From an uncultured Spirochaetales bacterium (GTDB taxonomy: Bacteria > Myxococcota_A > UBA9160 > UBA6930), in assembly GCA_964501435.1 (NCBI GenBank), contig CAZCTH010000009.1, positions 9,747-73,746 on the forward strand: a DNA stretch of 64,000 bases, in the 5' to 3' direction. Under the pieces are notes generated by a model, which saw only the letters and a program-made list of their open reading frames with translations, searched no databases and was not told where the DNA came from. The translations under genes and the position numbers were made by a program. Shown piece by piece: positions 59,182 through 60,078 of the stretch. Position 1 is the stretch's first letter; every line of letters starts with the position of its first letter.

Positions 59182-60078
59182 ATGACCGGCATCACGCACC
59201 GCACGTTCGTCAGCTACATCGATCGCACGCGCGAGTACTACGCCGCGCAGGGCTACGCGAAGCCCTACGTGTGGGCGCGGAACACCGACGCGCCGTTCGC
59301 GCCACTCTCGAAGCCGCTGGCGCAATGCCGCGCCACGGTCGTCACCACGGCGAGCCCGTGGCGCGACGCGAGACCGGTCGACGGCGTGCTGCGCGGCGAC
59401 AACGCCGTGTGGTCCGGAGACACCGCCGCGCCTCCCGAGCGCCTCTACACCGCGCACCTCGCGTGGGACAAGCAGGCGACGCACACGAACGACGTCGAGA
59501 GCTTCCTGCCGCTCGCGCGCTTGCAGGAGCACGCAGCCGCGGGCCGCATCGGGAGCGTGGCGCCGCGCTTTCACGGGGTGCCCACCGACTACTCGCAGCG
59601 CCGCACCATCGAGCAGGACGCGCCGCAGATTCTCGCCCGCTGCCGCGAGGACGCCGTCGACGTCGCGCTGCTCGTACCGCTTTGACCCGTGTGCCACCAG
59701 ACCGTGAGTCTGGTCAGCCGCCATCTGGAAGCGAACGGCATCCCGACCGTCGTCGTCGGTGCCGCGCGCGACATCGTCGAAGAGTGCGGCGTCGCGCGCT
59801 TCGTCTTCACCGACTTCCCCCTCGGCAACCCCTGCGGCCGGCCCTACGACGCGCAAATGCAGGGCGCCATCGTCGGCGTCGCGCTCGACCTGCTCGAGAG
59901 CGCGCGACTTCCGCGCACCACGGTGACGACGCCGTTTCGCTGGAGCGACGACGAGGCCTGGAAGGCCAACTTTGCGAGAGTCGACCCCGAGGCCGCCGCC
60001 GTCCTGCAGCGCGCCGGCGCCGAGCGCCGCGCGCGCCAGGACGAGAAGAAGTCCCGAGGCGAAACGCGCTCCACCTAG
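59182..60078 (+). CDS. GrdB/PrdB-like (glycine/sarcosine/betaine/D-proline reductase component B family) protein with in-frame TGA at 59683-59685; candidate selenoprotein
   Basis: ORFs 58669..59685 and 59689..60078 are in the same frame and are separated only by TGA-CCC. The read-through sequence is ..DVALLVPL-U-PVCHQTVSLVSRHLEANGIPTVVVG.. (U-x-x-C). A hairpin lies 10 nt downstream of the TGA. ATG 59182 has GGAGAG upstream. The second ORF has no RBS of its own. Confidence 0.6.
59696..59714 (+). other. Candidate bacterial SECIS-like hairpin
   Basis: 7-bp stem ACCAGAC/GTCTGGT with apical loop CGUGA. The stem starts 10 nt after the UGA. This compares with the roughly 11-nt spacing and G/U-containing apical loop of characterised bacterial SECIS elements. 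Confidence 0.45.

Follow-up and report, generated by a model that had tools for sequence, protein, structure and literature searches.

Selenoproteins labelled as the proline reductase subunit PrdB and marked by a UxxC motif have been catalogued since 2005-2006. In the Sargasso Sea, 'Proline reductase (PrdB), UxxC' ranked third in abundance among selenoprotein families, with 42 selenocysteine (Sec) genes (PMC1088965); in the Global Ocean Sampling data, the PrdB family of proline reductase had 235 Sec against 110 Cys members (PMC2398784). Anaeromyxobacter dehalogenans and Geobacter uraniumreducens also have a listed 'proline reductase' selenoprotein, and Anaeromyxobacter, a member of the Myxococcota, is a documented user of Sec (PMC1794560). 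Residue 151 of the Clostridioides difficile PrdB is Sec (PMC11229817), and the C-terminal domain of GrdB-type proteins contains the UxxC Sec motif (PMC13188914). The gene described here is a further member of the catalogued family that has been mis-split in sequence collections. It occupies positions 59182-60078 (forward strand) of a 64,000-nucleotide stretch of contig CAZCTH010000009.1 from an uncultured Spirochaetales bacterium, hereafter referred to as the window. With a probability of about 0.9, comparison of sequences indicates that these positions form one gene for a Sec-containing protein of the GrdB/PrdB ('selenoprotein B') superfamily, belonging to an orphan PrdB-like clade.

The clade shares with the catalogued 'PrdB, UxxC' family its label, its motif and the excess of Sec over Cys forms, and the catalogues do not separate it from the operon-encoded PrdB. 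Since TGA-bearing members of the clade are present in marine metagenome-assembled genomes (MAGs; Tara, ALOHA and Red Sea, loci L074-L076, L079 and L080), the PrdB entries of the catalogues very probably correspond to this clade, the match being one of label, motif and bias and not of aligned sequences. A literature search turned up no paper that explicitly describes an orphan PrdB-like clade, and a selenoprotein specialist would find nothing surprising in it. The curated models TIGR04483 and PF07355 do not capture the clade, and its members carry the labels of proline or glycine reductase and yet lack every partner of those complexes.

Gene structure and translation past the TGA

The gene has 298 codons (about 33 kDa) in a single frame that is interrupted only by the TGA at 59683-59685, and the true stop codon, a TAG at 60076-60078, lies in the same frame as the ATG at 59182 and the internal TGA. 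A Shine-Dalgarno-like GGAGAG, read from the sequence, is found at 59171-59176 on the forward strand, 5 nucleotides upstream of the ATG; a search of 58900-60400 gave no sigma-70-like promoter. The putative Sec codon 168 separates codons 1-167 (59182-59682, +) from codons 169-298 (59686-60075, +). By read-through, the product around the TGA would be ...CREDAVDVALLVPL-U-PVCHQTVSLVSRHLEANGIPTVVVGAARD..., with an upstream end of DVALLVPL, and the Sec-containing junction peptide would be LLVPL-U-PVCHQTVSLVSR. The TGA is followed by CCC, GTG and the TGC at 59692-59694, which places it three codons ahead of Cys171, the predicted resolving Cys of the U-x-x-C motif; this residue is invariant in the alignment of the clade (A3) and in bona fide PrdB. 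The initial annotation had described two open reading frames (ORFs) sharing one frame, parted only by TGA-CCC and laid out as U-x-x-C, and every one of these elements is indeed present. It had also anticipated that standard pipelines would split the gene, and both halves are in fact stored in public collections as separate predicted proteins, P0011 (167 amino acids) for the upstream part and P0241 (129 amino acids) for the downstream part, which gene callers begin at the GTG at 59689.

These calls amount to an explanation of their own, namely that there are two real genes, one for a 167-amino-acid protein ending at the TGA and another for a 129-amino-acid protein beginning at GTG 59689, a codon that is a legal start and is used as such by gene callers. 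The downstream ORF, however, has neither an ATG nor a Shine-Dalgarno sequence ahead of that GTG, as had been noted at the outset. Furthermore, the Val codon in question takes the form GTG in just 13 of the 75 relatives and GTC, GTT or GTA in the rest, so that the start is not conserved, and the homologues are single polypeptides in which the active-site motif runs across the junction. Two separate genes are, on this evidence, extremely unlikely.

The coding character of the sequence continues past the TGA, and the part that it encodes there, codons 169-298, is conserved among homologues. The G+C content at third codon positions (GC3) is 0.93 before the TGA and 0.90 after it in the same frame, as opposed to 0.71 and 0.52 in the other two frames, and the ratio of nonsynonymous to synonymous substitution rates (dN/dS) downstream of the TGA, computed against the three nearest relatives, is 0.09-0.23, which is below that of the upstream half. 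To judge from these rates, purifying selection acts on the sequence 3' of the TGA. A tblastn search with the PrdB of C. sporogenes as the query gave a single high-scoring segment pair, 59305-59943, that spans the TGA. Eight of the 11 neighbouring genes end in TGA as their normal stop, and therefore the codon has not been reassigned genome-wide; a scan of the whole window for other in-frame TGAs flanked by strong coding signal gave no convincing case. A dead gene, in which a TGC or TGT codon for Cys had mutated to TGA, or a sequencing error, in which such a codon had been misread, would account for the split made by the pipelines and for the existence of Cys forms of the family, TGA being one base away from either codon. 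On the other hand, the identical sequence was assembled from each of four sequencing runs independently, the TGA is kept in 154 related loci (genomic and metagenomic) from many phyla, the downstream part has the dN/dS and GC3 of a working gene, and the synonymous sites that form a hairpin, described below, are maintained only in the forms with TGA. Because the TGA is conserved and the downstream sequence is under purifying selection, the pseudogene or error explanation is effectively refuted.

Sec and Cys forms of the clade

Homologues numbered in the thousands in a search of 5.8 billion proteins. Those of full length have about 291 amino acids and are 54-65% identical to the window protein, a range that also holds for codons 1-167, and their source names are 'glycine reductase', 'reductase' and 'D-proline reductase PrdB'. 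The column of the TGA is Cys in 62 of 62 aligned full-length homologues (LVPL-C-PVCHQT), and C168, P169, V170, C171, H172 and Q173 are all invariant in them. When the clade was aligned with bona fide PrdB by hhalign, U168 fell opposite PrdB residue 151 (LLVPL-U-PVCHQ against LLTGG-C-GTCHR), so that the TGA stands opposite both the invariant Cys of the Cys-type homologues and the Cys or Sec of PrdB. The alignment of homologues had been proposed in the initial annotation as a check on the TGA, and its outcome favours Sec, the more so as most close relatives carry a TGA themselves.

These relatives were collected at the DNA level in two sets, the best 80 loci in GTDB contigs with one genome per species and the best 80 metagenome loci found with a Cys-form query. 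The codon in question is TGA in 75 of the 80 genomic loci and, despite the Cys-form query, in 77 of the 80 metagenome loci, with core identities among the TGA forms down to 49%. Genomic carriers of the TGA belong to Myxococcota, Burkholderiales, Spirochaetales, Syntrophales/Thermodesulfobacteriota, Binatia, Chloroflexota, SAR324, Gammaproteobacteria and Actinomycetota, and the TGA forms span at least eight phyla; the nearest relatives of the window gene (77-79% identity) are in MAGs of Myxococcota/'Deltaproteobacteria'. TGC or TGT at this codon was found in four alphaproteobacterial loci (three Bradyrhizobium and one uncultured) among the best 80 genomic ones. In terms of similarity, the two kinds of form are intermingled; the Cys form L168, for example, is nearest to the Sec form L037 (77%).

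The window gene (167 and 129 amino acids) and most of its relatives are stored publicly as two fragments, and therefore protein searches return almost only the rarer Cys forms, whereas searches of DNA show that the TGA forms dominate. When the N-terminal half was used as the query in an exhaustive search of representatives of clusters at 50% identity, 65 of the 98 alignments that reached the end of the query stopped exactly there.

Some members show peculiarities in copy number or in the residue recorded at the Sec column. Two TGA-form copies, identical around the hairpin, occur on contigs of one MAG (L055 and L057 of MFD01476.bin.1.214) and are either a pair of paralogues or redundant contigs. 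Locus L168 has tandem Cys-form copies of 291 amino acids (1081-1956 and 2309-3184) that are identical around the active-site motif, each followed by an ORF of 57 amino acids with a faint ALS_ss_C match; this may be a tandem duplication or an assembly repeat. Several database PrdBs have Trp at the column of Sec151 (LTAG-W-GTCHR; column 152 of alignment A4, entries P0121, P0133, P0137, P0152 and P0161). This looks like a TGA translated by gene callers with an alternative code, and the residue on record for Sec forms is possibly wrong. In two Spiroplasma entries, the same column of PrdB holds Arg.

The hairpin downstream of the TGA

A hairpin begins 10 nucleotides after the TGA and occupies positions 59696-59714 of the forward strand, with the stem ACCAGAC (59696-59702), the loop CGUGA (59703-59707) and the complementary stem GUCUGGU (59708-59714), and at the same time it codes for part of H-Q-T-V-S-L-V. 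RNAfold reproduces the stem of 7 bp. The published model of the bacterial selenocysteine insertion sequence (SECIS) has a loop of 3-9 nucleotides, a stem of 4-16 bp, a G among the loop's first two positions, a distance from UGA to loop of 16-37 nucleotides and a minimum free energy (MFE) of at most -7.5 kcal/mol (PMC13188914, Fig. 2). The hairpin agrees with this model throughout, having a loop of 5 nucleotides, 7 bp, a G at position 2 of the loop with a U after it, a distance of 17 nucleotides and an MFE of -19.9 kcal/mol. Like the SECIS elements of the Escherichia coli fdhF/fdnG type, it lies within the coding sequence immediately 3' of the UGA, has a small apical loop with G and then U near the 5' side, and has a spacing and stability within the model (PMC13188914). 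Its sequence, unlike theirs, is unrelated, and no bulged U was identified in this hairpin.

Comparison between relatives provides the bulk of the evidence that the hairpin matters as RNA. The stem cells are paired in 97.3% of cases across 75 distinct TGA-form sequences, and compensatory changes are seen in three of the seven pairs, e.g. G-C to A-U in SAR324 (L079) and A-U to G-C in L080; none of 500 shuffles reached the observed covariation score, and RNAalifold recovered the same helix. Synonymous sites carry the strongest signal, conservation at third codon positions being 0.88-0.99 within the hairpin and 0.37-0.69 just outside it. The complete stem of 7 bp is present in 124 of 142 Sec forms as compared with one of 12 Cys forms (Fisher p = 1.8e-8), and the rare Ser codon AGT (Ser177) in 133 of 142 as compared with two of 12 (p = 3.5e-9). 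The Cys forms mostly have AGC at Ser177, which breaks an A-U pair, and they also relax residues that the hairpin encodes, with T, A or I in place of V175 and V178. It is this contrast with the Cys forms that separates the RNA constraint, as predicted here, from constraint on the protein. The near invariance of the hairpin across phyla is attributed to its overlap with the conserved helix of the active site, and this dual-coding element, at once peptide helix and putative SECIS, offers a clean case of RNA-structure constraint on synonymous sites. One Bradyrhizobium Cys form with TGT (L073, 10451-10486) retains the full 7-bp hairpin together with the AGT codon for Ser, and looks like a fossil SECIS left by a recent conversion of Sec to Cys.

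A covariance model was built from relatives, to the exclusion of the window and of loci L005-L007, which are closest to it. The model had a single match in the 64-kb window, at 59683-59721 (58 bits, E 1.8e-12), its next match (12 bits) being the same hairpin on the opposite strand. A search of 59500-59900 against Rfam at a permissive threshold gave only chance matches to microRNA and small nucleolar RNA families. The resemblance to SECIS geometry pointed out in the initial annotation is borne out by the agreement with the model, by the pairing and synonymous-site constraint and by the decay in Cys forms, and a covariance model, which had been suggested there as a check for the region of TGA and hairpin, recovered that region from the whole window.

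According to the mechanism that these data suggest, the hairpin at 59696-59714, 11-17 nucleotides past the UGA, would act as a bacterial SECIS and recruit SelB·GTP·Sec-tRNA(Sec), so that the UGA at 59683-59685 would be decoded as Sec168 and would not terminate translation. Several points weigh against this account and against its extension to catalysis. The hairpin is not significant when the single sequence is folded (z -0.99; 31 of 200 shuffles fold as well or better, at 72% G+C), covariation is thin, with four compensatory cells in 525, and most of the support for the hairpin is conservation, to which the conserved HQTVSLV peptide contributes as well. As the fold is ordinary, on one sequence, for DNA of 72% G+C, its significance rests on comparison. 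No selA, selB, selD or tRNA-Sec was found in the 64-kb window (ARAGORN, Rfam, and tblastn with E. coli SelA, SelB and SelD), where the only tRNA is a tRNA-Pro, and the catalytic mechanism outlined in the next section is an extrapolation from PrdB and GrdB at 27-28% identity.

The negative result for the Sec machinery is uninformative, in that a piece of 64 kb says nothing on the other contigs of this genome. It does leave room for the UGA being read as something other than Sec, such as Trp or Cys inserted by near-cognate decoding or Cys carried by a Cys-loaded tRNA(Sec) with an incomplete Sec pathway, and in relatives a Cys works at this site. Against such decoding, the hairpin fits the model of a SECIS that depends on SelB, and selection keeps it only together with TGA. 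Moreover, TGA is the normal stop of the neighbouring genes, and in one carrier of a 70%-identical TGA form (L016, a Burkholderiales MAG) the contig with that form also bears a tRNA-Sec and the 3' end of selB, about 10 kb upstream. Read-through without Sec is accordingly considered very unlikely, and SECIS-driven decoding as Sec is retained as the predicted fate of this UGA. The order on the L016 contig (43-633 and 5797-6167) is selB 3' end, tRNA-Sec (anticodon TCA) and a transfer-messenger RNA gene.

Family relationship, predicted function and neighbourhood

The read-through protein has no Pfam match at E <= 1, GRDB (PF07355) included. Its best NCBIfam match is PrdB (TIGR04483), with 97.2 bits (E 9.7e-28) against an equivalog cutoff of 300, and the GrdB, GrdF and GrdH models match more weakly, far under their cutoffs (30.3 bits against 65.45 for TIGR01918, and 24 against 602 bits for another). 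The initial annotation had placed the protein in the component-B family of the glycine, sarcosine, betaine and D-proline reductases; the placement holds at the level of the superfamily, as the TIGR04483 match indicates, and fails for membership in GrdB or PrdB proper, all cutoffs being missed. The protein is thus PrdB-like, and neither true PrdB nor GrdB under any curated cutoff.

For a direct comparison, bona fide PrdB was represented by database entries named PrdB and carrying PF07355. Aligned by hhalign, clade and PrdB matched with a probability of 99.8% (E 1.3e-28) and 28% identity over 208 columns. The two share the Sec or Cys at the equivalent position (U168 and U/C151), the U-x-x-C-H motif, the occurrence of both Sec and Cys forms, and conserved core residues (D, P, C, H, R, E, T, R, P, G, G). 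In contrast to PrdB (241 amino acids), the window protein has 298 amino acids, with N-terminal and C-terminal extensions and an identity of 27-28%, and the clade is about 50 residues longer. The clade also has an invariant third Cys, Cys218 (TGC at 59833-59835, +), in the clade-specific motif FTDFPLGNPCG, which is invariant in A3 and aligns with VPMGANAGEP of PrdB, where there is no Cys (GNPCG against GANAG); furthermore, it has YSQRKT in place of GGGGN and a WDK..THT motif. Its members come from aerobic, soil and marine lineages and not from Stickland fermenters. The likeness to GrdB, GrdF and GrdH (PF07355, TIGR01917/01918) is weak but consistent, residues 89-240 mapping to the C-terminal domain, positions 268-422, of models of 431-435 positions. 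Unlike GrdB, the clade protein is missing an N-terminal part of about 260 residues, and no grdA, grdE or grdC is found nearby.

The protein might nonetheless be a genuine PrdB subunit of D-proline reductase, with the pyruvoyl subunit PrdA encoded elsewhere in the genome. The top curated match to TIGR04483, the Joint Genome Institute label 'D-proline reductase (dithiol) PrdB', the shared Sec position and U-x-x-C-H motif, and the filing of such genes under 'proline reductase' in selenoproteome surveys (PMC1088965, PMC1794560, PMC2398784) would all fit. Opposed to them are the shortfall against the equivalog cutoff, the low identity, the difference in length and motif set set out above and the neighbourhood. 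C. sporogenes (L177) shows the canonical gene order prdC-prdA-prdH-prdB-prdD-prdE of the operon, and yet its PrdA, PrdC, PrdD, PrdE and PrdH had no match in the window or in the 1.6 Mb flanking about 170 loci of the family. Nor is any neighbour family conserved, the best being acyl-CoA dehydrogenase in 10 of 81 loci. A true PrdB is hence highly improbable, and because PrdA, PrdC, PrdD, PrdE, PrdH or any other conserved neighbour is lacking, the predicted protein is most likely a stand-alone reductase and not a D-proline reductase.

A structural model was obtained for P0002, the closest full-length Cys homologue of the window protein (AlphaFold; predicted local distance difference test score, pLDDT, 90; predicted template modelling score, pTM, 0.90). 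In this model, the Cys equivalent to Sec168 is located at the N-terminus of a helix preceded by a beta-strand, which is the usual place of redox-active CxxC and UxxC motifs. Searches of the PDB by sequence, with a single sequence and with a profile, gave only a chance match to a Fic protein (E 0.47), and Foldseek with the P0002 model against the PDB gave nothing at E <= 0.001 (best TM score 0.27); the fold is one without a solved representative.

By homology with PrdB and GrdB, the product would carry U168-P-V-C171-H, with the selenol acting as the catalytic nucleophile or reductant. Cys171 would then resolve the selenol to a selenenylsulfide, to be reduced again by a thiol system. It is rather likely, if well short of certain, that the orphan clade represents a self-sufficient selenoenzyme for a reaction other than the reduction of D-proline or glycine. 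The features that suggest this are a length of about 290 amino acids, the L-U-PVCHQT motif, the extra invariant Cys in GNPCG, the lack of a PrdA-type pyruvoyl partner or operon, and a mostly Sec-encoded distribution over at least eight phyla from soil, sediment and ocean. If this is true, the clade would be among the most widespread uncharacterised environmental selenoenzymes, at present mislabelled as 'proline reductase' or 'glycine reductase'.

The neighbours of the gene in the window include a divergent VOC/glyoxalase gene, short-chain dehydrogenases/reductases (SDRs), a convergent Amidohydro_2 gene, a GNAT and an aminotransferase, with no member of the Gly_reductase or GRDA families among them, and synteny for them was seen only in L005, the relative with 86% identity. 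In three loci with Cys forms (L171, L172 and L174; proteins P0006 and P0010), a protein of 450 amino acids with FAD_binding_4 and FAD-oxidase_C domains is encoded directly 3' of the gene; it is possibly a local partner of that Cys-form subclade and was not seen beside TGA forms.

Two other features of the window lie apart from the selenoprotein gene. At 56980-57753, on the reverse strand, a protein of 257 amino acids with no Pfam match starts with a signal-peptide-like N-terminus, and its C-terminal tail, ...LPEPGAMSLLATGLLGLAWLGSRRAPRR, resembles a PEP-CTERM sorting signal. At 3278-12481, on the forward strand, an ORF of 3067 amino acids (GC3 0.97) is made up for the most part of 83 ALTTAQ repeats (PF20080, 2360 bits), and the overlapping ORFs of several kb found on both strands at these positions are shadows of this repeat ORF.

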